From a virus (Duplodnaviria > Caudoviricetes), in IMG/VR virus record IMGVR_UViG_3300011008_000034, positions 32,001 through 96,000 of that record: DNA of 64,000 bases; one strand, 5' to 3'. Positions 3,542 to 50,094 of this stretch are shown one piece after another (positions within the stretch are counted from its first letter, which is position 1; each line of letters opens with the position of its first letter). A program made the translations under genes and the position numbers. The notes beneath the pieces were generated by a model. That model was not told the origin of the DNA and did not search any database. It saw nothing but the letters and a program-made list of their open reading frames with translations.

Positions 3542-4013
3542 ATTTGCTGGTATAGAAGAAGAATCAACTGTTGATGGTGAGGGAATTCGTTTTGTATTAT
3601 TTTGTCAAGGATGCCCTCACCATTGTAAAGGATGCCATAATCCATCTACTTGGAGTTATGATAAAGGTGACTTTATATCTCCGGAAGAAATTTTATATAA
3701 AATGAAACAAAATGAATTATTAGACGGAATTACTTTGTCAGGTGGAGAACCTTTTGAGCAAGTTGATGAATTGTTACCATTACTAAAATTAATAACTCCT
3801 GAATATAATGTTTGGTCTTACTCAGGATATATATATGAAGATTTAATACAAGATACTAATAAAAAGAAATTATTGCAATACATTGATTATTTGATTGATG
3901 GTCCTTATATAGAAGATTTAAGAGATTTGACGTTACAATTTCGTGGGTCATTAAATCAAAGAATTATAAATGTACAAGAATCATTAAAACAAAATAAAGT
4001 CATGTTAAAATAG
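3528..4013 (+). CDS. nrdG: Anaerobic ribonucleotide reductase activating radical SAM protein
   Basis: DGEGIRFVLFCQGCPHHCKGCHNP, LSGGEPFEQ, DGPY and FRGSLNQRII motifs. Confidence 0.92.
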   Translation: MNVIRFAGIEEESTVDGEGIRFVLFCQGCPHHCKGCHNPSTWSYDKGDFISPEEILYKMKQNELLDGITLSGGEPFEQVDELLPLLKLITPEYNVWSYSGYIYEDLIQDTNKKKLLQYIDYLIDGPYIEDLRDLTLQFRGSLNQRIINVQESLKQNKVMLK

Positions 4014-4040
4014 ACCGAGAATATTCTCGGTCTATTTTTT
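4008..4040. terminator. Bidirectional intrinsic terminator
   Basis: AAATAGACCGAGAATATTCTCGGTCTATTTTTT inverted repeat between convergent genes. Confidence 0.8.
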
Positions 4041-4293
4041 ACCTTAATGTAATTGCTATTCCATTTTTATCTTGGACGATTAGATATTCTTTTCCCTTAT
4101 TACAATCTCTTAAGATTGTAACTTGAATATCATCATATGTTTCTGCTTTTTCTAAAATAATTTCATCTGTAGAAAATTTTTGAGAATGTACTTTTTTCTC
4201 TCCAATATTTAATAGCAGAGTAATGATAAAAATAGGGATTAAGAAACACTATATTCCTATTAAGATATTTAAGTTGTCCTTTACTTTTTTCAT
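4039..4293 (-). pseudogene. Small membrane-anchored protein (84 codons) with an in-frame TAG at codon 15
   Basis: ATG overlaps the dnaE stop; MKKVKDNLNILIGI*CFLIPIFIITLLLNIG...ILRDCNKGKEYLIVQDKNGIAITLR; TAG at 4249-4251. Confidence 0.55.
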
Positions 4294-5832
4294 TCATCTT
4301 CCCCCTCAAAATTTTTTTCATCAAATGGTTCTATTTCTAAATCTTTAGCAGAAATTCCACCAAATGATTTAGTACCAATAATCTTTAAAAGGCTTCCTTC
4401 TTCAAACAATGATAAATATTTTCCATTTCTATGACCTTCGTTATCAGCATACATATTTTTCCAAGCATAGATTTTTATTGTACCAAATTTTGTCAAGAAC
4501 CAAATATTGTACATAAAACTTTTTCCATTTTTAGTCGGTTTCTTAGTAATTTCATTTACTATTCCAATATAAGATAATCTTTGCCCATCAAAAGCTTCTT
4601 CTATAGGAATTTCTCCACTAGTACTATGACTTAATGCTGGATGAGGAATAAAAGAAATTTCAAACCGATTAATGTCTTTAATATATGCTTTGTATAAGGG
4701 TTCCACTTCATATGCAATTTCTCCAAAATGACCAAAAAATGCTTCTGTAAAATGATTAACTTGCCCCTGTTTTTGTTCTATTAATACACCAGTAGGCTTG
4801 ACTTTTACAGGATAAATATATTTGGATTCAAGTGTTAGATTAAATAATCCTAATTGACTTTCTTTTACAACAATATAATGTTCAAGAGATTTTTTGAATT
4901 TTAATTCAAATTGCTTATGCATGGTTTTATATGTTTTTAATTTGTCTTTTAATGATTTGATTTTTTCTTTTAACTTATCCAAATGAAGCTTTTCATTTTT
5001 TAATTTTGCATTACGTTTAGATAAAAATTTTCGAGTTTCTTCAGCATTGGATAAAATTTTACTTGCATTAGAATTAATATAATTAGCTGCAGTAATTTGT
5101 TCTTCTGTTTCTGGAACATATTTATCTTTACTAATAGCTCGAATCATTTCATCAAAAGCATTTCCTTTGTCAAATTTGATATTGAAATCATCTCTTTGCT
5201 GTTGAGTAATGTAATTAATATCTATAGCATAATTCTTTTCTGGTTTTTTATCAATAGATTCAATATAATATTTAAACCAGATTTCTTGTTTAGACCTGTC
5301 CATGAATATGTAATAATTTGATTCATCTTCAGTTTTTCTTAATTTATTATGATGTTTATATGAATTTGTTTTTAATGGTTTGATTCTTTCTAAAACCTTG
5401 AGCATGTCATCGTTTACTTCTTCTTTAGGAATCTCCAATGGAATTCCTTCAAAAGCCCCAATAGCAATACAAGCTTCTACATTCTTTTTATTTTTTCCTC
5501 CGCCTTCTACTCTATTATAAAAATCTTGAATGGATTTAAATGGTCCATCACTTTGAGCTTTTATAATTTCATCTACAGAAGTTTCTCCAACACCTTTTAC
5601 ACAATTTAATCCCATACGAACAGAATTAGTATCAATATTTTCAATTGTTGCAATAAATTTAGATTTAGAAATATTAGGTGGAAGAATGTTAATTTTAAAC
5701 CGTTCTGAAGTTGCTTCTTTAAAACAAATAGATAAATTACTAATCGCTTCAGCATTAAATAAATGAGTAAAAAAAACTAATGGATAATTAATTTTTATCC
5801 AGGCAGACCAAAATGATATATACGAATAACAT
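4290..5832 (-). CDS. dnaE: DNA polymerase III alpha, C-terminal gene, exon 2 (HhH and OB-fold region)
   Basis: After splicing reads FNKSHSI-CYSYISFWSAWIKINYP...ILPPNISKS...RMGLNCVKGVG...GPFKSIQDF; open frame to 4290. Confidence 0.9.
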
Positions 5833-6135
5833 CACTTAAAAAGTGGACTATCCCATCACCTAAACGGTGCCGATATTATAGTCTCTGAACGTCTAATCAA
5901 AATAATAGATTCATTATTTTGATTATTTCGATGCTGATTGGTTGTTGTTTATGATACTTAGCATTTTCAGCTTATATCCAAAATTTAATTTTTTCTGTCT
6001 TTCGACTGCGATTCACACTTATTTTTACAAATTATGTTGTAGCTTAAATTTTGTTCAACGTTCCCAGCAGTTTAATCGGTTTTTCATCCTATCTTTCGAT
6101 ATGAAGCCACATGTTTATACGAAACGTATACGTCT
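5833..6135 (-). ncRNA. Group I intron (303 nt, no ORF) in dnaE
   Basis: Core elements AACTGCTGGGAA (P), AATCAGCA (Q), GTTCAGAGACTA (R) and GGGATAGTCC (S). 5' exon ends in U (TCCAT) and the intron ends in G. IGS AACATGTGG pairs with both exons (P1 with U.G, P10 with ATGTT). Splicing restores the frame. Confidence 0.92.
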
Positions 6136-40449: not shown

Positions 40450-40791
40450 TCAATTTTTTATCTCAAAGGGAATGGATTGTGTAGCTAAACATTTTTTCAC
40501 AAAAATACGAATAGCTGTTTGCGTATCTAATCCTAAATTGTCCATTAGGGAAGTAAATTTTAAGAATTCCTGAAGATTAGCAAAATTATTAGTAGGAATA
40601 TCATGTTCTACTAAGAAAACTTTATCCTCATAATTCATTTCATTAATGTAATTATCTCGTTCATCTTCATCTTCTACATGTTCACGAATATAATCTTCAA
40701 AATAATCAAAAGCTTCCTCTGCGTCAGCAAACATTTTTACTTTATTAGCAGTAATACTTTCATTAAGATTTACAATAGCATATACTCTCAT
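40450..40791 (-). CDS. Protein with RelB/DinJ antitoxin-like C-terminus
   Basis: LGLDTQTAIRIFVKK......IPFEI. Confidence 0.6.
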   Translation of the reverse strand: MRVYAIVNLNESITANKVKMFADAEEAFDYFEDYIREHVEDEDERDNYINEMNYEDKVFLVEHDIPTNNFANLQEFLKFTSLMDNLGLDTQTAIRIFVKKCLATQSIPFEIKN

Positions 40792-42422
40792 TTTGCATTT
40801 CCTTTCTCAAAATTGTTTAACATTAATTGAATATTCCGTCTTCCTGCAAATTCATTAATAGATAAATTATAGGCAATATTAATTATATTTTCATTGTCAA
40901 ATTCTTGCATAAAATGATTCATTGTGGAATTAAAACAAATTCCATCAAATGTTACTCCATTCTGAAAAAATTTGAATTTCAATGCATTTTTCTTTTTGCC
41001 TAAAATTTTCTTTTCAAGAATTTCTACATTTTTAGAACAGAATATCAATTCTTTATTTCCGTTTCCAAATGGCCTTAGTAAATTTATTTTATCCATTAAA
41101 GTCCAAGATATATCTTCAAAATTTATTAAATAGTCTATGAGATATTCATCTTCAACATATTCATGTGTCTCTAGCCATTTTTTAAAATCTTCATTACACC
41201 GACGTTTAAATTCTTTCAAATCACTATTTTCTATAGATAATGCACAAGCTTCTGCATGTCCACCACCAGAAATTTTTAAATCTTTATTTTGAATAATTAC
41301 ATTAGATAAATTATATCCAGGAATAGACCGTCCTGAACCTCCAGAATGTGTTTTTCCTTTTACCATTGCAAAACAAGGTTTTTTAAATTTATCTGATATT
41401 TGATTAGCTACAATTCCTAATACACCAGCTGGAACATTTTTAAATGTCTGAATAATAACTAAATCTTCGCTTGGTTTTACTTCTTCTAATAATTTAGATT
41501 GAATTTCTTTACGTTTATCATTTAAAGAAATCATTTTTTTGACAATTTTTTCTGCTTCAAACTCATCATCACTAAGAAATAAATCTACTACCATGCTAGC
41601 GTCTTCCATACGTCCAGCTGCATTCATTAATGGTGCAATCGTAAAACCAATATCATTTTCAATAACTTTTTTTAAATTACACAATTTCAATAATGTATTT
41701 AATCCAATATTAGCAGTTTCTGTGAGATGATTTAATCCATGATAAACGAAAATTCGATTTTCATCTTGTAATGGCATAACATCCGCTAATGTCCCTATAG
41801 TAGCTAAAGCAATTAATTGAGGATTTAAATCTGGATATAACAATTTAATATCTGGAATTAATGCTCTAATGACTTTATAAGCTACCATAGCTCCACAAAT
41901 TCCATGGAAAACATTTTCATCTAAATAGGGGTCTACAACTATTTTACATGGAAGAGTTTTTTTATTATGAGGATGATGATCTGTCACAATGACATCAATT
42001 CCATTATCCATAGCATACTTAATTGATTCATGTTCTGCGATTCCTGTATCTACAGAAATAATCAAATCAATATTATCTTTAATACATTCGTCTATTTGAC
42101 GTTTTGAAATGCCATATCCATCTTTTACACGATTAGGAACACTATAACTGACATTAGGCGTTAATTGAGATAATCCTAACATCATAATAGAAACAGAAGT
42201 TATTCCATCAGAATCATAATCCCCTAATATTTTTATCTTTTCATTATCAAGTATAGCTAATTGAATTCTATCAATAGCTTTTTTCATATTTGGAAGAGAA
42301 AAAGGAGAATTAATTCTCCCCTTTTTATATAAAAACTTATTAAAGTCTTCGTCAGACATGGAAAAATATTTTTGAATAGAATGCAAAAAATCACCCTCAT
42401 ATGTATTCAAAATTTTCCACAT
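40788..42422 (-). CDS. recJ: Single-stranded-DNA exonuclease RecJ
   Basis: GDYDSDG, PNR..DGYG, VDTG, TDHH, GTLADVMPL..ENR, NAAGR, GGGH, PFGNGN. Confidence 0.93.
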   Translation of the reverse strand: MWKILNTYEGDFLHSIQKYFSMSDEDFNKFLYKKGRINSPFSLPNMKKAIDRIQLAILDNEKIKILGDYDSDGITSVSIMMLGLSQLTPNVSYSVPNRVKDGYGISKRQIDECIKDNIDLIISVDTGIAEHESIKYAMDNGIDVIVTDHHPHNKKTLPCKIVVDPYLDENVFHGICGAMVAYKVIRALIPDIKLLYPDLNPQLIALATIGTLADVMPLQDENRIFVYHGLNHLTETANIGLNTLLKLCNLKKVIENDIGFTIAPLMNAAGRMEDASMVVDLFLSDDEFEAEKIVKKMISLNDKRKEIQSKLLEEVKPSEDLVIIQTFKNVPAGVLGIVANQISDKFKKPCFAMVKGKTHSGGSGRSIPGYNLSNVIIQNKDLKISGGGHAEACALSIENSDLKEFKRRCNEDFKKWLETHEYVEDEYLIDYLINFEDISWTLMDKINLLRPFGNGNKELIFCSKNVEILEKKILGKKKNALKFKFFQNGVTFDGICFNSTMNHFMQEFDNENIINIAYNLSINEFAGRRNIQLMLNNFEKGNAK

Positions 42423-42436
42423 GTTTACACCTCTTT

Positions 42437-43498
42437 TCATAAATCTTCTTCAATATCATCATAAATAATTTTATTAATATCATAATCAATTATTACTTTT
42501 TGTTTTCCATTTATACATAAATCATATGCTTTGTGTATATTTTCAAAAAGATTTTCTAATTTTTGTGGTTTTTTGCATTTTGTTTCAACAATTCTAATAA
42601 TTTTCCATCCATTACTATAAAGCAATTCTTCACGTTTAGATTCATTTTTAAAGAATTGTTCTTCTGATTCATTTTTCATTTTATAATATGCAAAATGTCC
42701 ACGTCCATCAACTTCAATACAGATTTTATCTTCAGGAAATGCAATATCCAATCTTTTACGTTTAAATTTATAGTTTAACTCTCCGCCAATTTTCAACCAT
42801 ATATATTCCTGTAATCTCGATGTATTAACACCTGTACCATGACTCCTATCCAAAAGACCTTGATTAATTTTTTTACGTATTTTAGGACTTTGCGAAATAT
42901 TACTTTCAACACCATAATTTTTTTGTAACGTTTCTAATTTCTTTTTCTTTATTATCTCACTTTGACAAACATTTTCAACACCCCAATGTTCCAATGTTGT
43001 TTGCGTTATGCGTTGTCTTATTTCTGGATTTTGTGAAACATTCTCAACTCCCCATCTTTCTAAATTTGTCGCTTTTACTTTATCTCTCACTTCTTGACTA
43101 CAAGTTGGGGCAATCCCTCCATAACGTTCAGTGTTTGTCTTAGCAACTTTTTCATGCCATAATTTTGTTTGAGAAATGTTTTCAACTCCGTATTTTTCAA
43201 ATATTGCTTTTTTTGTTCGCTCTCCAAGATATTTGTTAAAAGCTTTTTTGCATTCATCTGTTTGTCGACAAAAATGTTTTTCTTTTCCTTGAACGCAACC
43301 ATACGTTTTTTGATACATTGTATGACAATGATCACATATAACATCAACTTGTATAGAAGAGTATTTAGGTAAATCAAATACATTTACTTCTATATTTCTG
43401 TTTGATTCAGATAATATATATCCAAGATTTTCATAATAAGATTTATTTTTTTTATTCCATTTTGTTATATATGTTTTATCAATTATCATTAAAATCAT
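42437..43498 (-). CDS. Free-standing endonuclease (Vsr/DUF559-like, NLE.YGV repeats)
   Basis: CDHC, KYGVENISQ repeats, LDIAF...KICIEVDGRGH, GWKIIRI. Confidence 0.78.
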   Translation of the reverse strand: MILMIIDKTYITKWNKKNKSYYENLGYILSESNRNIEVNVFDLPKYSSIQVDVICDHCHTMYQKTYGCVQGKEKHFCRQTDECKKAFNKYLGERTKKAIFEKYGVENISQTKLWHEKVAKTNTERYGGIAPTCSQEVRDKVKATNLERWGVENVSQNPEIRQRITQTTLEHWGVENVCQSEIIKKKKLETLQKNYGVESNISQSPKIRKKINQGLLDRSHGTGVNTSRLQEYIWLKIGGELNYKFKRKRLDIAFPEDKICIEVDGRGHFAYYKMKNESEEQFFKNESKREELLYSNGWKIIRIVETKCKKPQKLENLFENIHKAYDLCINGKQKVIIDYDINKIIYDDIEEDL

Positions 43499-43549
43499 TC
43501 CTTTTAATTATTTGATTTAAAATAATCAAAAAAGAAAAAATTTATTTTT

Positions 43550-43708
43550 TTAATATTGTATGGCTTTTTTCATGTTTGGAAGAGAAAAAGGAGAATTGAT
43601 TCTCCCCTTTTTATATAAAAACTTATCAAACTCTTCATCAGACATGGAAAAATATTTTTGAATAGAATGCAAAAAATCTCCTTCATATGTATTCAAAATT
43701 TTCCACAT
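43550..43708 (-). pseudogene. Truncated duplicate of the recJ 5' end (52 codons)
   Basis: MWKILNTYEGDFLHSIQKYFSMSDEEFDKFLYKKGRINSPFSLPNMKKAIQY*; part of a ~240-bp direct repeat of about 42276-42514. Confidence 0.85.
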
Positions 43709-43955
43709 ATTTTCTCCTCTTTTCATAAATCTTCTTTAATATTATTATAATTAATTTTATTAACATCATAGTTAATCATTACTTTTTGTTTTCCATTTAT
43801 TATTATAAATACTATAAAGCAATTCTTTATGTTCATTTTTTATTTTATGATATGCAAAATTATATATAGTAAAAAAATTATTAAAAATTTTTAATCAAAG
43901 ATGTACATTTTATTACGAATATGATATAATAAAATATTAATAAGGAGGTATAACT

Positions 43956-44339
43956 GTGGTTCATAATGAAAGAAATCAACACAATATAGTAGAAAAAGAA
44001 CTTATTCTATTTCAGTCTATAGTAGACCGAAAATCGGTTGTAGAATCTACAATTAATCAAGCTATAGATAACCATGTGAAATCATATCCTAAACAACGTA
44101 AAATTTCTAGTACTGTTATTATTGTAACAAATTCTGGAGACGAAAAAGTAAATGAAGAAGCATTAAAAAAGGTTCATGATAAAATCATTACAGAACATCT
44201 TCAAGCAGTTAATCAATTAAATCATTTGAAATCATCAGGTAGTTGTAATTATAATGATATTCATTCTGTTCCACCACTATATCAAAATAAAGCAAGAGAA
44301 ATTATCGAAGAAAACAATTGGCTTATGAATAATGAATAA
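43956..44339 (+). CDS. Hypothetical protein, first gene of the radical SAM operon
   Basis: GTG start with AAGGAGG RBS and upstream TGTACA..TATAAT promoter. Confidence 0.65.
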   Translation: MVHNERNQHNIVEKELILFQSIVDRKSVVESTINQAIDNHVKSYPKQRKISSTVIIVTNSGDEKVNEEALKKVHDKIITEHLQAVNQLNHLKSSGSCNYNDIHSVPPLYQNKAREIIEENNWLMNNE

Positions 44340-44357: not shown

Positions 44358-45137
44358 ATGCTTACAAAAGTAGCTGAAAAACATTTTGCAAATGGTTCAG
44401 TATATGCATTAAAAACAGAAGATGGTTTTTTATTAGAAACGACTGATACATTCCTTCCTTATTATACGAAAGATGCTATTGGAAGAAAACAAAATTTTTT
44501 AGATAATAAAGATTTAGGCAGTAGAAGTGAACGTTGGATGATTGGTGTTTCTACTATGTCAGGTTGTTGTGTAGGATGTAAATTCTGTTCTACTGGTAAT
44601 ATGAAGAAATTTAGAAATTTAACTGCACAAGAAATTGTCGAACAAGTTGAATTTATTTTAAGTCTTCATAAGGAAAATCCTCTTGACAGTAAAGAATTTA
44701 AAATTAACTATACAAGGATGGGTGAACCTTTTCTTAATATAAAAAATGTAAAAGAAGCAATGTCTATCTTAAATAAATACAAACCACATCATTATATTTC
44801 AACTATTGGAATTAAAGATAGTGATTTTTCTTTTATTAAAGGTAATATTACATTACAAATTTCACTTCATTCGTTAGATAATAAACGACGTAATAACTTA
44901 ATTCCTTTTAAAAACAAAATGACTATTGAAGAATTAGGTCAAATTCGTACAAAATCAAACCTAAAAACGACTATTAATATGACATTGGTCGATAATGCTG
45001 ATTTTGATATTGATAAATTAAAAAAACACTTTGACCCCAAATACTTTTTTATTAAATTATCGCCTATTAATGAAAATGTTATTTCTAAAAAGAATCATTT
45101 AGGAAAAGGTATTGTGGAAGGAATAAATATTATTTAA
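44358..45137 (+). CDS. RlmN/Cfr-like radical SAM protein lacking the C-terminal AACGQL segment
   Basis: ET, VSTMSGCCVGCKFCSTG, RNLTAQEI.EQV, MGEP..N, ISTIG, LQISLHS....R..LIP; only 259 aa. Confidence 0.85.
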   Translation: MLTKVAEKHFANGSVYALKTEDGFLLETTDTFLPYYTKDAIGRKQNFLDNKDLGSRSERWMIGVSTMSGCCVGCKFCSTGNMKKFRNLTAQEIVEQVEFILSLHKENPLDSKEFKINYTRMGEPFLNIKNVKEAMSILNKYKPHHYISTIGIKDSDFSFIKGNITLQISLHSLDNKRRNNLIPFKNKMTIEELGQIRTKSNLKTTINMTLVDNADFDIDKLKKHFDPKYFFIKLSPINENVISKKNHLGKGIVEGINII

Positions 45138-45150
45138 GGGAGAAACCAAA

Positions 45151-45438
45151 ATGGAAATTTTAACGAAAGCAAATTTATTTGGGGTACAAGTTTCTATTGA
45201 CGAAGAACGAGTTATTATTGATATGATCGAAAATTTAACGGGGAAATCTATCTATAAAAATATTTATGTTAAAAATGATAAGCTTGTTCATGAATATGAT
45301 GGTTCATATCACGGTTCATATTCTCCTGAATACGAAATAATTACGACAGACGTTAAAAAAATTAAAAAATTTCAGTTATTGAAAGAATTATTAAATGTTA
45401 TAGAAACAGAAAAGGTGGACGAAACATTATGTCAATGA
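45151..45438 (+). CDS. Hypothetical protein
   Basis: 95-aa ORF in the operon. Confidence 0.6.
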   Translation: MEILTKANLFGVQVSIDEERVIIDMIENLTGKSIYKNIYVKNDKLVHEYDGSYHGSYSPEYEIITTDVKKIKKFQLLKELLNVIETEKVDETLCQ

Positions 45439-45659
45439 AAGAAAAATTTTGCAAAGAACAACTTCAAGATATACTTGATTTTTACGAATTTTGTAAAACG
45501 AAGAATAAGAAATTTCTTTATGTCAAAACGAATGAAAATAAAACTGGAGTGAACGTCATTAATCATGTAAAAGAAATGGTTAACCTTTATACTAATAAAA
45601 ACGAATTCTTAAAAGATGCCGAAAGAATTTTTAATTTAGTAAAGGATGATGAAAAATGA
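45429..45659 (+). CDS. Hypothetical protein
   Basis: 76-aa coupled ORF; KEQL..ILDF.EF N-terminus resembles that of the next ORF. Confidence 0.55.
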   Translation: MSMKEKFCKEQLQDILDFYEFCKTKNKKFLYVKTNENKTGVNVINHVKEMVNLYTNKNEFLKDAERIFNLVKDDEK

Positions 45660-46036
45660 ACAATATAAAAGAACAAATTGAATTCGTATTAGATTGGTGT
45701 GAATTTCAAGAATCAAAAGGAAAACCAGCAAGACTAGATATTATTTTATCTTCTGAAGATATTGATGAAGAAGTAAAAAATATTTTTAATTGTATTGGTT
45801 ACTTAAATAAACATTTATCAAAAGATGAATTAATAAACATTATTAATAAAGCGGAAAATGCCGAAAGCGAATATCAAAGTCCAATGAAGTGTTGTATTAA
45901 AAGAAAGATGGTTGGAGATGGCTGTATGAGCAGTACTCGTTACGTTGAATATTGTGTAGCAGCAGAAAATTGTACAAATGAAGAATGTTTATATGCTACT
46001 CGAAAAAAGAAAAGAGAACATTCTTCTTTTTGTTAA
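45656..46036 (+). CDS. Hypothetical protein with Cys-rich C-terminus
   Basis: 126 aa; CC...C...C....C...C. Confidence 0.6.
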   Translation: MNNIKEQIEFVLDWCEFQESKGKPARLDIILSSEDIDEEVKNIFNCIGYLNKHLSKDELINIINKAENAESEYQSPMKCCIKRKMVGDGCMSSTRYVEYCVAAENCTNEECLYATRKKKREHSSFC

Positions 46037-46047
46037 AGGATTATACA

Positions 46048-46909
46048 ATGAAAATTTTCGATTATGATATTCAAACAAAACAATATTATTGTCAATTAAA
46101 TAATCATCCATTAAAAAAAATTCCTTCTTCTACTATAAATGTTTATGTACGATTACAAAATGTTTGTAATGCAAAATGTAAATTCTGCGAATTTAAAGGC
46201 AATTATATCCCTTTTAATGAAAAAGGATTTAGAGAAGCATTAGAAGAAATTCGTAGTAAAGTAAAAATTAATCGTTTATCATTTACAGGAGGAGAACCTA
46301 GGAGGAGAACCTACTTTAGATTTTGAACTATTTAAAAGATGTTTAAAATTTGTTCAAGATTTTGATAGTGATATTTTTACTGTTGTCAATACGAATGGAT
46401 TATACTTGAATGAATTAGAAGAATTAGGATTAAATAGTATTGCTTTATCAAGACATCATTATAATCAAGATAAAAACGATGAAATATTCGGTATAAAGAC
46501 ATCTAATATTAAAAATATAAAGAATTTACATTTATCATGCAACTTAATAAAAGGTTATATTGATAATGAAGAAGAAATCTTAAAATATCTTGATTGGTGT
46601 GATATGAATGGATTTACAGATATTGGTTTTGTTGCGCTAATGAAAGTAAACGATTATTGTAAAGAACATTTTATTTCACAAGATATATTTAATTTCAATG
46701 GTAAGCGATTCTTAAAAGTCAAAGAATATCATAATAAAGATATTCATAATGAACTTTGTTGTAAGTGTTGTAACTATCTTTATGGTGGTGATAATTTAGT
46801 CAATATTTATAGCAGGCATTACATAAAGTCTGATAATAATAATGCATTGGTTTATGATTTAAATAAACTAAAAGATGGATTCAATGGAAAAATCATTAAG
46901 GAGTGGTAA
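46048..46909 (+). pseudogene. Second radical SAM protein, frameshifted by a 13-bp tandem duplication
   Basis: CNAKCKFC, SFTGGEP; AGGAGGAGAACCT twice at 46287-46312; removing one copy gives a 282-aa ORF with NTNG, ISRHHY-like and CCKCC motifs. Confidence 0.85.
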
Positions 46910-46911
46910 AG

Positions 46912-47040
46912 ATGGAAGAAATTAAAAAACAGTTAGAAGACAATGGATATGATTATGCGGTAGCAATCGCAACGCAAGCAGAAATTGAAAATGGAGCAGC
47001 TTGTGGTCAGCTTGCAATTATTGTCGAAAACGAAGAATAA
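46912..47040 (+). CDS. 42-aa peptide equivalent to the RlmN/Cfr C-terminal catalytic segment (not in ORF track)
   Basis: AAGGAG RBS; MEEIKKQLEDNGYDYAVAIATQAEIENGAACGQLAIIVENEE; terminator follows. Confidence 0.8.
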   Translation: MEEIKKQLEDNGYDYAVAIATQAEIENGAACGQLAIIVENEE

Positions 47041-47052
47041 GTTTTAAATAAG

Positions 47053-47095
47053 TAAAAAGCTCATTATCCTTAAAATTGGGATAATGAGCTTTTTA
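47053..47095. terminator. Bidirectional intrinsic terminator
   Basis: AAAAAGCTCATTATCC...GGATAATGAGCTTTTT. Confidence 0.85.
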
Positions 47096-47874
47096 TTATG
47101 CTATTGTTTTAGTATTATGAACAATGAACTCTTTCAAGTTTCTCGGAAGTTCTTTATAAATATCTTTTTTATATTTCTCCCAACCATTCAAGGTATTTTC
47201 ATATCCAATATGTTCGCATACATAAGAATCAAAATTACAAAAATGACTTTTTCCATCTTTAATAAATTTCATTGTAATTTTTTTATTCGGATTTTCTTCA
47301 GCGAGACTCATTAGTTTTGTAAGAATCTTTTCATCGTCATGAATAAGGTTAACATTAATTGCAATTTCGTCTATACTAGTAGCGAACTGTCCATGAGAAA
47401 TATCATTAAAAGTATGAAGATAATTTGGAGTATAAATGGTCAAGTCATTAAAATGACCATCATCATATCCATCGCATGTCCAAGTTGTGCCGGTTACAAA
47501 AATATTATATTTTTTATGCCATGCAAAAAGTTGAATTTCATGTCGTTTTCTATTATATGCTTCAAATTGAAATTCTTTTTCATAAGTTTCAAATCCAAAT
47601 TTTTCAAGGACTTTTTTCGCTTCTTCAAGATTAATATCTGGATAGAAATCATCTGCTTCCACTCGTTCGCCAAGAGTTACAATGTAATATTTTTCAGCAG
47701 TTTTCTTTACCTTAGCAATTTTAAAGAAGCCTCCAGAAGGAAGTACTTTATCAGAAATGATTACTTTCCCATAAGCATCATATCCAACGAAAGACTTTCT
47801 ATTTCTCTTGCTATCATAAGAATCCGCGAAATAATATACATCGTTTTCTTTTACTTCGTTTTTAAATTTGTACA
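47096..47874 (-). CDS. Hypothetical protein (early promoter)
   Basis: Promoter at 47943-47974; AAGGAG RBS before MYKF. Confidence 0.7.
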
Positions 47875-48014
47875 TTTTAATTCTCTCCTTTTCTTTAACT
47901 ACTCTTTTTCTATCCTTACGGATTTTCCTTACCTCTGATTTTATTATACCATATTCGAAGTAGTTTGTAAATAGTTTTTTCATTTTTTCAATATCATATA
48001 ATAAAAAGGAGAGA

Positions 48015-48888: not shown

Positions 48889-50094
48889 CTAAAAATCTTC
48901 CTCTTTATCACCGTAAATAATTTTATAAGTATTATAATTAATTATGACTTTATTTATGTCTGTCGTCTTTAAAATAGATTTAGCATAATCAATTCTAATT
49001 TTTATATCAGATAAAATTTTTTCATAATCACGACATGTAGTCTTTGTGTCAATAACACGAATAATCTTCCATCCTAAATTAAAGAAAAATTGTTCTCTAT
49101 CATATTCATATTGCAAAAACTCTTCATGAGTCATATTCTTAAATTTTATACAATATTTTTCATGTCCTCCACCATCATATTCTACATATATCATTTCTTC
49201 AGGAAAAGAAATATCTTGAGCTTTTTTTATAACTTTATAATTCAATTTTCCACCAATTTGAAGCCAAATAAATTCTTGCTGTTGTGAAGTAAAAACTCCT
49301 GTCCCATGACTTTGTTCAATAAACGTTTGATGAGCTTTATTTCGTAATTTTTCATTTTGTAATGGATGTTCTACTCCGTAACGATCTAAATTTGTTAACT
49401 TAATTTTTTCTTTTATGGGTTCTGCAGCAAATACATTTTCAACTCCCCATTTTTTCATATTTGTTTCCGCAATTTTTGCTTGTACCTCTGGATCTTGCAT
49501 CACTTGTTCTACACCACGTTTTTCCAAATTAGTTTGTTTAATCTTTTTTTTGCCATATTCCGATGCCCAAACATTTTTAGCTCCATATAATTCAAGATTA
49601 GTTTTTGCAATTTTTTCTTGTATCTTTGGAACTTGAAATGTAGATGGATAACCATACAAATCCATACACGTTTGAGCCATTTTTGCTTTTACTTCTGGGG
49701 ATTGCGATGCACATTCATATCCATACTTATTTAAGTTTGTTTGCTTTATCTTTGCTTTACCATAATCAGATGCCCAAACATTTTCAGCTCCATATATTCG
49801 CATATTTGTAGCTTTTCTTAAATCATCAGAATATTTCTTATGTGCAGCTTTACAAGCATCAGTACTATGACAAAAATGCATATCATGAACTATAGCTGCT
49901 TGAAACATTTTTTGAAAAATAACATCATCACAATAATCGCATTTTACGTCAATTTTCATACATGAATTAGGATGTATATCAAATACATTTACATCTACAA
50001 AATCTCCATATGCTAAATTTTGAAAACCATGTTGTTTGTAATAGTTTATATTGTGATATGTTATTTTCACTAAATAATTTTTATCTACTATCAT
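48889..50094 (-). CDS. Free-standing endonuclease (Vsr/DUF559-like, ~6 TNL..YG repeats)
   Basis: Paralog of 42437 and 22969: CDYC, repeats, DI.F....IYVEYDGGGH, GWKIIRV. Confidence 0.78.
   Translation of the reverse strand: MIVDKNYLVKITYHNINYYKQHGFQNLAYGDFVDVNVFDIHPNSCMKIDVKCDYCDDVIFQKMFQAAIVHDMHFCHSTDACKAAHKKYSDDLRKATNMRIYGAENVWASDYGKAKIKQTNLNKYGYECASQSPEVKAKMAQTCMDLYGYPSTFQVPKIQEKIAKTNLELYGAKNVWASEYGKKKIKQTNLEKRGVEQVMQDPEVQAKIAETNMKKWGVENVFAAEPIKEKIKLTNLDRYGVEHPLQNEKLRNKAHQTFIEQSHGTGVFTSQQQEFIWLQIGGKLNYKVIKKAQDISFPEEMIYVEYDGGGHEKYCIKFKNMTHEEFLQYEYDREQFFFNLGWKIIRVIDTKTTCRDYEKILSDIKIRIDYAKSILKTTDINKVIINYNTYKIIYGDKEEDF

Follow-up and report, generated by a model that had tools for sequence, protein, structure and literature searches.

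A putative two-part RlmN/Cfr-type radical SAM enzyme of phages with its cysteine loop on a separate 42-residue peptide

Core and peptide genes in the window

The window is a stretch of 64,000 nucleotides (nt) from the IMG/VR virus record IMGVR_UViG_3300011008_000034. Two genes on its plus strand are here interpreted as the probable parts of one enzyme derived from RlmN or Cfr: a radical S-adenosylmethionine (SAM) core of 259 amino acids (rSAM1, 44358-45137) and a peptide of 42 amino acids that carries a cysteine loop (46912-47040). All coordinates are positions in the window unless a locus is named, and L and P numbers denote the loci and representative proteins compared. RlmN is the C2-methyl synthase of 23S rRNA A2503 and tRNA A37 (TIGR00048; PDB: 3RF9/3RFA, 4PL1, 5HR6/5HR7, 6FZ6) and Cfr is the C8-methyltransferase of 23S rRNA A2503 (TIGR04432, NF000424; PDB: 9P0P). 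Both are textbook examples of methylation via a protein-bound methylcysteine, and the two cysteines involved are considered indispensable. In the system described here one of these cysteines has moved to a separate small protein and the other is deleted, an arrangement found in crAss-like gut phages, huge phages, FelixO1-like enterobacterial phages, Vibrio phages and a Moorella phage. In our literature searches there was no account of an RlmN-like enzyme that is split, depends on a peptide or comes from a phage.

The core gene has a GGAGG ribosome-binding site 8 nt upstream of its ATG, and its product is assigned to the RlmN/Cfr type by profile, fold and PDB matches. Radical_SAM (Pfam, E 7e-9) is the sole domain detected in it with Pfam and NCBIfam. 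The best sequence match is the NCBIfam RlmN model TIGR00048, which aligns with residues 57-210 at profile positions 102-265 of 355 (E 9e-24) and gives 84 bits against a cut-off of 290. The Cfr models score lower still, with 58-60 bits against cut-offs of 530-550, so that the family score threshold is not reached there either. RlmN and Cfr chains in the PDB are matched with an E-value of about 1e-10. The AlphaFold model of the core has a predicted local distance difference test (pLDDT) score of 87.7, and its top Foldseek matches are RlmN structures (template modelling score 0.66-0.71; 0.68-0.71 for the best, 6FZ6/3RFA), followed by Cfr, which has the same fold. Like RlmN, the core has the barrel with the CxxxCxxC, MGEP, ST.G and SLH motifs and the beta extension that precedes it. 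It differs from RlmN in a family-specific insert at residues ~35-57 and in being phage-borne.

To place the core on the RlmN chain we built a profile from 17 relatives and compared it, using hhalign, with a 355-column profile of canonical RlmN-like proteins. The core covers columns 82-301 (E 5e-45). Columns 1-81, which represent the N-terminal RNA-recognition accessory domain of RlmN, have no counterpart residues in the core, and the core stops at column 301 and thus lacks the C-terminal Cys loop. It contains four cysteines only, all inside the cluster motif, namely the cluster ligands C70/C74/C77 and an extra C71. The residue seven positions before the first cluster cysteine, which by alignment is the place of RlmN Cys118, is Gly63, and a glycine stands there in 17 of 17 aligned relatives and in 47 of 47 Gly-type loci from genome collections. 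The first-pass annotation of this DNA had recognised an RlmN/Cfr-type core without the C-terminal Cys segment and with glycine at the Cys118 place; this is confirmed, with one correction to the numbering (Gly63, C70/C74/C77 and the extra C71). The methionine of the MGEP motif, M121, is invariant in the alignment and aligns with the RlmN methionine that is credited in a review with stabilising the cysteinyl radical (PMC9692996).

The peptide gene starts directly past the stop codon of the upstream gene, and the Shine-Dalgarno sequence AAGGAG, as read from the sequence, lies 8 nt before its ATG within the 3' end of that gene (46898-46903, plus strand). The 42 residues comprise a helix, the strand YDYAVAIA, the loop GAACGQL and a short acidic tail after the loop; the peptide is strongly acidic, with a net charge of about -6. 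Searches of Pfam, NCBIfam and PHROGs placed the peptide in no family, and phmmer against PDB chains returned chance matches only. Comparing profiles gave a different result, as a peptide profile built from 43 diverse members aligned with RlmN columns 313-349 of 355 (hhalign probability 94%, E 1e-7). The proposal that the small open reading frame (ORF) reproduces the helix-strand-AACGQL segment missing from the core, which in RlmN carries the methyl-bearing cysteine, is thereby borne out. Because columns 82-301 and 313-349 are matched by the two products, core and peptide together tile the RlmN catalytic domain. The peptide family comprises 364 clusters of 23-74 amino acids in the protein collection, and 14 columns are invariant among the 43 members, among them I4, L8, G12, A16, A18, A20, T21, E24, G28, A30, C31, G32, Q33 and L34. 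The peptide is conserved along its full length and homologous to an internal C-terminal segment of RlmN, which is not the pattern of a leader and a variable core found in the precursors of ribosomally synthesised and post-translationally modified peptides (RiPPs).

Conservation of the two-gene design

Separate core and peptide genes are also found in cultured phages. The core is 65% identical in the crAss-like Bacteroides phage Kehishuvirus 'tikkala', 47% in Moorella phage MTATph1, 39% in Vibrio phage D479 and 35% both in Yersinia phage P778 and in Wc4, a Pectobacterium phage assigned to the Ounavirinae. In all of them the peptide gene lies directly 3' of the core gene or within two genes of it. 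Among the IMG/VR loci the peptide is encoded downstream on the same strand in 79 of 80; the exception, L019, has no peptide, and a local rearrangement there also truncates the neighbouring radical SAM gene. Divergent core-peptide pairs from metagenomes are L095, L096 and L097. Furthermore, we assembled an independent set of loci with one genome per prokaryote species, drawn from genomes and metagenome-assembled genomes. A separate peptide gene was found in 46 of the 47 Gly-type loci of this set, in two of them upstream of the core, and the exception, L142, has no peptide in the 721 nt of its downstream flank. Loci with Cys, Thr, Ile or Val at the Cys118 place carry the Cys loop in cis in 31 of 31 cases and a separate peptide in none of the 31.

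The state with two ORFs is seen at core identities from 33% to 75%, and none of the Gly-type representatives has a C-terminal segment of this kind in cis. About half of the relatives have the two genes side by side; in the others the gap measures ~1.2-1.3 kb. The first-pass annotation had allowed that homologs might normally be single full-length ORFs, which would have made this a broken gene. This is not the case for the Gly-type clade, whose members are as a rule encoded in two parts in the IMG/VR, genome-collection and cultured-phage loci, and the Cys118 equivalent is absent across the whole split clade. In Vibrio phage D479 the peptide ORF (L003, ~5860-6084) is a tandem of two modules that are nearly identical, and no further tandem form turned up when longer proteins were searched for. 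Two relatives of the core, P0124 (601 amino acids) and L149, carry an intein with a LAGLIDADG-like endonuclease part inside the CxxxCxxC motif (CAF|C...HN|CAT), and an insertion site of this kind is typical of genes under constraint.

Besides the split forms there are single-chain phage RlmN-like proteins, for example in Stenotrophomonas phage BUCTxx99 and Vibrio phage PS17B-2. They resemble the system described here in being phage-borne, in lacking the N-terminal domain, in being 30-37% identical to the core and in having a length similar to that of core and peptide summed. They differ in that both cysteines are found in one chain (ICCST... and ...GGGCGQLW), and they group with canonical RlmN on the Cys118-bearing side of the tree described below. 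In Stenotrophomonas and Xanthomonas phage records (L086) the single-chain gene is labelled 'prohibitin family protein', apparently an annotation error taken from a neighbouring gene. An SPFH/band-7 gene is found two genes upstream of the core-peptide pair in Kehishuvirus (L001, 3446-4663).

Some phage enzymes are known to be split by a mobile element and still to assemble, such as the split ribonucleotide reductase of Aeromonas phage Aeh1. The present case is comparable in that two polypeptides rebuild one fold and that foreign genes may intervene, as they do in the window. It differs in that the split is ancient, conserved across unrelated phage groups and mostly without an insert, that the inserts are not homing endonucleases, and that the split is accompanied by the loss of a catalytic residue.

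Fusions of the two parts, which point to a joint action of the two products, occur as well. In P0126 (315 amino acids) and P0148 (695 amino acids) the peptide forms the N-terminal part and the core follows it, so that the order is circularly permuted, and P0148 carries a second radical SAM domain as well. P0182 and P0209, which lie in or beside the split clade, have the Cys loop at the C-terminus. In one phage lineage a small class-I methyltransferase is fused in frame to the peptide, giving proteins of 179 amino acids (P0280, P0282, P0285 and locus L111, 4001-4540).

We modelled the complex of core and peptide in three runs, with an interface score (ipSAE) of 0.64 compared to 0.00 for the best control. 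The ipSAE mark is reached by 58 of 80 solved complexes and by 2 of 110 mismatched pairs, and these rates are approximate here as our own alignments were used. The runs share at least 34% of contacts, with a partner pLDDT of at least 53, and the confident contacts join peptide residues 13-17 to core residues 230-234. The model thus predicts that the peptide strand is added to the last barrel strand of the core, as would be expected from homology to RlmN, and in this form it agrees with the earlier suggestion that the peptide completes the barrel in trans.

The ~40-residue peptide gene is often overlooked or called hypothetical in annotation, and the core is readily mislabelled as RlmN. The two form a widespread auxiliary gene pair of phages for which cultured hosts exist (Bacteroides, Yersinia and Pectobacterium). 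The pair is a natural experiment in resolving, or not resolving, the cross-linked intermediate without Cys118, and a peptide supplied in trans makes such an intermediate easy to trap and weigh. The present analysis adds the contingency between the glycine and the position of the Cys loop in independent genomes, a tree in which the loss of Cys118 comes before the split, the permuted and methyltransferase fusions, and the evidence on a 13-bp duplication described below.

Loss of Cys118 and the possible role of the peptide

RlmN C118 and Cfr C105 are indispensable for resolving the protein-RNA cross-link, probably as general base, and the class A mechanism of Cfr uses two cysteines, C338 and C105; RlmN C118A traps and accumulates the adduct (PMC9692996). 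The titles of PDB entries 5HR6/5HR7, which are among the structure matches of the core model, also concern the RlmN protein-RNA cross-link. Without Cys118, either another group resolves the adduct or the adduct is the product, and the comparative data lean towards the former. The first-pass annotation had offered the extra cysteine of the SGCCVGC motif, C71, as a possible replacement for C118. This is not supported, as 15 of the 17 aligned members have proline at position 71, the type of the Vibrio, Yersinia and Pectobacterium phages among them.

In a tree of 92 representatives (quick search, LG+G4), a branch with 99% support in the Shimodaira-Hasegawa-like approximate likelihood ratio test (SH-aLRT) separates 34 Cys118-bearing from 58 Cys118-less proteins. 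On the Cys118-bearing side are the canonical RlmN-like proteins together with the minimal phage forms made as one chain. The Cys118-less side comprises three groups. One is the split clade, with a support of 92, to which the permuted fusions belong. Another is formed by proteins of ~300 amino acids with Ile, Val, Asn, Met or Thr at the Cys118 place and a GSNCGQ loop in cis. They are encoded in a conserved operon of three genes with an isochorismatase-family hydrolase and a thioredoxin-reductase-like flavoprotein (L099-L101, ~3566-5942; L105/L106), on contigs that carry cellular genes, and in P0197 and P0206 the enzyme is fused to the hydrolase. We know of no described function for this clade and its operon. 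The third is a cellular clade without Cys loop, the KIGVSL.SGC proteins of ~275 amino acids (P0183, P0184, P0203 and others), which have glycine at the Cys118 place and keep the C-terminal helix and strand. Since the glycine is found there and the loop is missing, both RlmN cysteines are gone from these proteins. We rejected this clade as a further example of the phage system, given that it is cellular, without Cys loop and without a peptide gene nearby.

Because the Cys118-less side of the tree includes clades with the loop in cis, the loss of Cys118 predates the split and is tolerated in enzymes with the Cys loop in the chain. Therefore the loss alone does not imply a dead-end adduct.

We favour, as the probable reading, that core and peptide are two subunits of one RlmN/Cfr-derived phage enzyme which uses Cys31 of the peptide as methyl carrier and retains turnover. 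The core keeps the [4Fe-4S]/SAM barrel. In the model the peptide strand (residues 13-20) adds to the last barrel strand (residues 230-236) and the peptide helix packs against the preceding helix. By homology to RlmN, docking would bring the flexible GAACGQL loop with Cys31 to the place of RlmN Cys355, one SAM would S-methylate Cys31, a second SAM would give the Cys-S-CH2 radical, and this radical would attack an sp2 carbon of the substrate. The step after the attack must differ from RlmN, because Cys118 is glycine in the whole clade. Most likely a different base or an external reductant would permit turnover, and the peptide would be an exchangeable cysteine carrier.

Given the loss of the N-terminal domain and the short, acidic tail of the peptide, the substrate is probably not recognised in the manner in which RlmN recognises 23S rRNA or tRNA. 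The median net charge of the split-family cores is +3 compared to +16 for canonical RlmN-like proteins, which speaks weakly against a large RNA substrate bound in the RlmN manner. The pair tends to be surrounded by genes of replication and nucleotide metabolism. As for Cfr, the phage system differs from it in the same ways as from RlmN, and there is no hint of a role in antibiotic resistance.

Several points weigh against this interpretation. Turnover without Cys118 is an assumption; in RlmN and Cfr the corresponding C118 and C105 are indispensable for resolving the cross-link (PMC9692996). The tandem module of phage D479 and the strong ribosome-binding site of the peptide gene fit a consumed reagent at least as well. 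In the complex model peptide residues 1-20 are the only ones placed with low error, the placement of Cys31 with respect to SAM lacks confidence, and the model may owe its pass to likeness to, or memory of, the solved RlmN structures. The score of the core far below the RlmN cut-off may also indicate that its chemistry has drifted from methyl transfer.

The most direct alternative is that the peptide is a consumed co-substrate, many peptides being used per core, which either ends covalently bound to an adenine-like ring in a nucleotide or nucleic acid or becomes a RiPP-like product tailored by the nested enzymes. We consider this possible, though on balance unlikely. The glycine at the Cys118 place in every split relative, read together with the cross-link that accumulates in RlmN C118A, argues for it, and so do the peptide having its own gene with a strong ribosome-binding site, the double module of D479, the tailoring-type genes nested between core and peptide (rSAM2, whose best weak match is the peptide epimerase YydG, or a radical SAM and a methyltransferase) and the fusions of methyltransferase and peptide. 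However, on the same logic the cellular enzymes that lack Cys118 and have their loop fused in cis would be suicide enzymes, and the N- and C-terminal fusions set a ratio of 1:1, with no extra free peptide gene in L090. The conservation of the peptide over its whole length and its homology to an internal enzyme segment are unlike typical RiPP cores, no SPASM, RiPP recognition element (RRE) or leader-like feature was found by Pfam scan, the acidic tail suits attachment to a polyanion poorly, and rSAM2 is dispensable at least in this record. Rather improbable, in our view, is the more specific version in which the peptide would serve as a disposable cysteine cartridge that is methylated by the core, is fired as the Cys-S-CH2 radical at an adenine-like ring and, for want of Cys118, stays bridged to its target, either a nucleotide or nucleic acid of host or phage. 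The nested radical SAM and methyltransferase genes would then tailor this adduct or the peptide itself; if true, this would be a natural enzyme making a peptide-nucleobase conjugate. The cross-linking proposed by the first-pass annotation is thus weakened by the age of the Cys118 loss relative to the split, the natural 1:1 fusions, the absence of the RNA-binding N-terminal domain and the short acidic tail.

It is also conceivable, but quite improbable, that the scaffold now serves a chemistry different from the methyl transfer of RlmN, with a small molecule, for instance an adenine or pyridine nucleotide, as substrate and Cys31 as ligand, hydrogen-atom relay or thiyl site in place of methyl carrier. 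The low RlmN score, the insert at residues ~35-57 and the low net charge of the split family agree with this. In addition, the L096 pair directly follows nicotinamidase-like, NAPRTase and NMNAT-like genes, and the Cys118-less cis clade has the hydrolase and the flavoprotein as operon or fusion partners. The relatives with both cysteines in a single chain contribute to the same picture: P0189 and P0221 are fused to a NUDIX or an HD/dGTPase-like domain, and L087 (1215-3890) lies right after NadV and a ribose-phosphate pyrophosphokinase (Prs), which hints at nucleotide over RNA substrates. NAD-salvage genes beside L096 and beside a fused Vibrio phage gene are a lead only, as tblastn found no such gene in the 177-kb record or near the other loci, and neighbourhoods vary among phages, the pair itself excepted. 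Furthermore, the invariant GAACGQL loop and the MGEP methionine are the exact methyl-carrier features of RlmN. Finally, an RlmN-like gene split by a 1.8-kb cassette, with the 42-residue ORF as a remnant, would account for the 1.8 kb of other genes between the parts in the window, one of them frameshifted. Such a pseudogene is hardly credible given that the two ORFs are adjacent yet separate in many relatives, each with its own start, that the 364 peptide clusters have invariant columns, that the state with two ORFs spans core identities of 33%-75%, and that no Gly-type representative has the segment in cis at the C-terminus.

Nested genes and flanking features

The usual insert between core and peptide in other phages consists of a gene for a different radical SAM protein of 255 amino acids and a class-I-methyltransferase-like gene of 148 amino acids. 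The window has a rarer type, in which a small protein with a Cys-rich tail ending in Cys is followed by a second radical SAM gene, rSAM2 (46048-46909, plus strand). The order of core, Cys-ended small protein, rSAM2 and peptide recurs in L013, L109 and L110, with rSAM2 39-42% identical. The small protein of the window has 126 amino acids (45656-46036, plus strand), a Cys-rich C-terminal tail and Cys as its final residue, and is a candidate partner of rSAM2. It has no detectable sequence similarity to the Cys-ended small proteins before rSAM2 in L013, L109 and L110; it could not be aligned with the L013 protein of 116 amino acids, and the likeness is limited to the Cys tail ending in Cys.

In this record rSAM2 is frameshifted because of an exact 13-bp tandem duplication (two copies of AGGAGGAGAACCT) at its GGEP motif (46287-46312). 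Read without one of the copies, the gene encodes 283 amino acids that are 39% identical over the full length to the intact 288-residue L013 gene product. One copy is absent from every contig crossing the site in runs X1, X2, X3 and X5, which come from four studies. Because all crossing contigs have a single copy, the frameshift is private to this record. It arose very recently by mutation or is an artefact of assembly or sequencing, and in both cases the core and the peptide are intact.

rSAM2 itself has weak MoaA-, viperin- and YydG-like scores. The intact homolog likewise has the YydG epimerase, MoaA and viperin as its best matches, all of them weak, generic and far under the cut-offs. Searching the protein Atlas for rSAM2 gave only viral radical SAM clusters without names, and a scan of viral contigs with the C-terminal part of the window rSAM2 found no relative. 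The earlier idea that this second radical SAM gene is a partner that could process the adduct is supported in part. The gene recurs in the nested position in other phages; it comes with a Cys-ended small protein of its own and is frameshifted in this record. Apart from the pair and the inserts, no other neighbour is common to the loci of different phages. Judging from their position and one fusion, the inserts may be accessories, not always present, whose products act together with the peptide or upon it.

The genes belong to a compact run of plus-strand ORFs which is flanked on both sides by blocks of minus-strand genes. An ORF of 127 amino acids (43956-44339, plus strand), which has no match in Pfam, NCBIfam or PHROGs, may be the first gene of the unit. 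Two further plus-strand ORFs lie between the core and the small Cys-rich protein. The first, of 95 amino acids (45151-45438), has no family match in Pfam, NCBIfam or PHROGs, and is covered by contigs 85-99% alike in four metagenome runs. The second, of 76 amino acids (45429-45659), overlaps its neighbour ORFs at both ends and has a sub-threshold GNAT-like match in Pfam (E 2e-4). Comparing the 127-, 95-, 76- and 126-residue ORFs and the downstream minus-strand genes with all fetched loci by tblastn gave no match.

Downstream of the peptide gene a hairpin of 20 bp with A and U runs on its flanks (47051-47097) has a folding energy of -26.6 kcal/mol (z -8.2), and none of 200 shuffles folds equally well. 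It is likely a two-way terminator that closes the unit, with a convergent minus-strand gene (47096-47983) past it. The terminator scan overlooked this hairpin, which was revealed by folding. Promoter-like signals were no more frequent than in shuffled sequence, with 28 found against 32 expected.

The source is probably a huge phage, because the parent IMG/VR record of 177,647 bases is rated 36% complete by CheckV. In four gut metagenome runs from four studies, three of the runs being labelled sheep, contigs 85-99% alike span the whole stretch; no RNA run was among those listed as containing it.

On the minus strand at 40788-43836 a RecJ-like gene (550 amino acids) is preceded by an endonuclease-like gene of 353 amino acids, and this in turn by a repeat of the initial 58 RecJ codons that ends in a stop. 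A paralog of the endonuclease-like gene, with 401 amino acids, is located at 48889-50094. This arrangement is consistent with the invasion of recJ by a mobile element.

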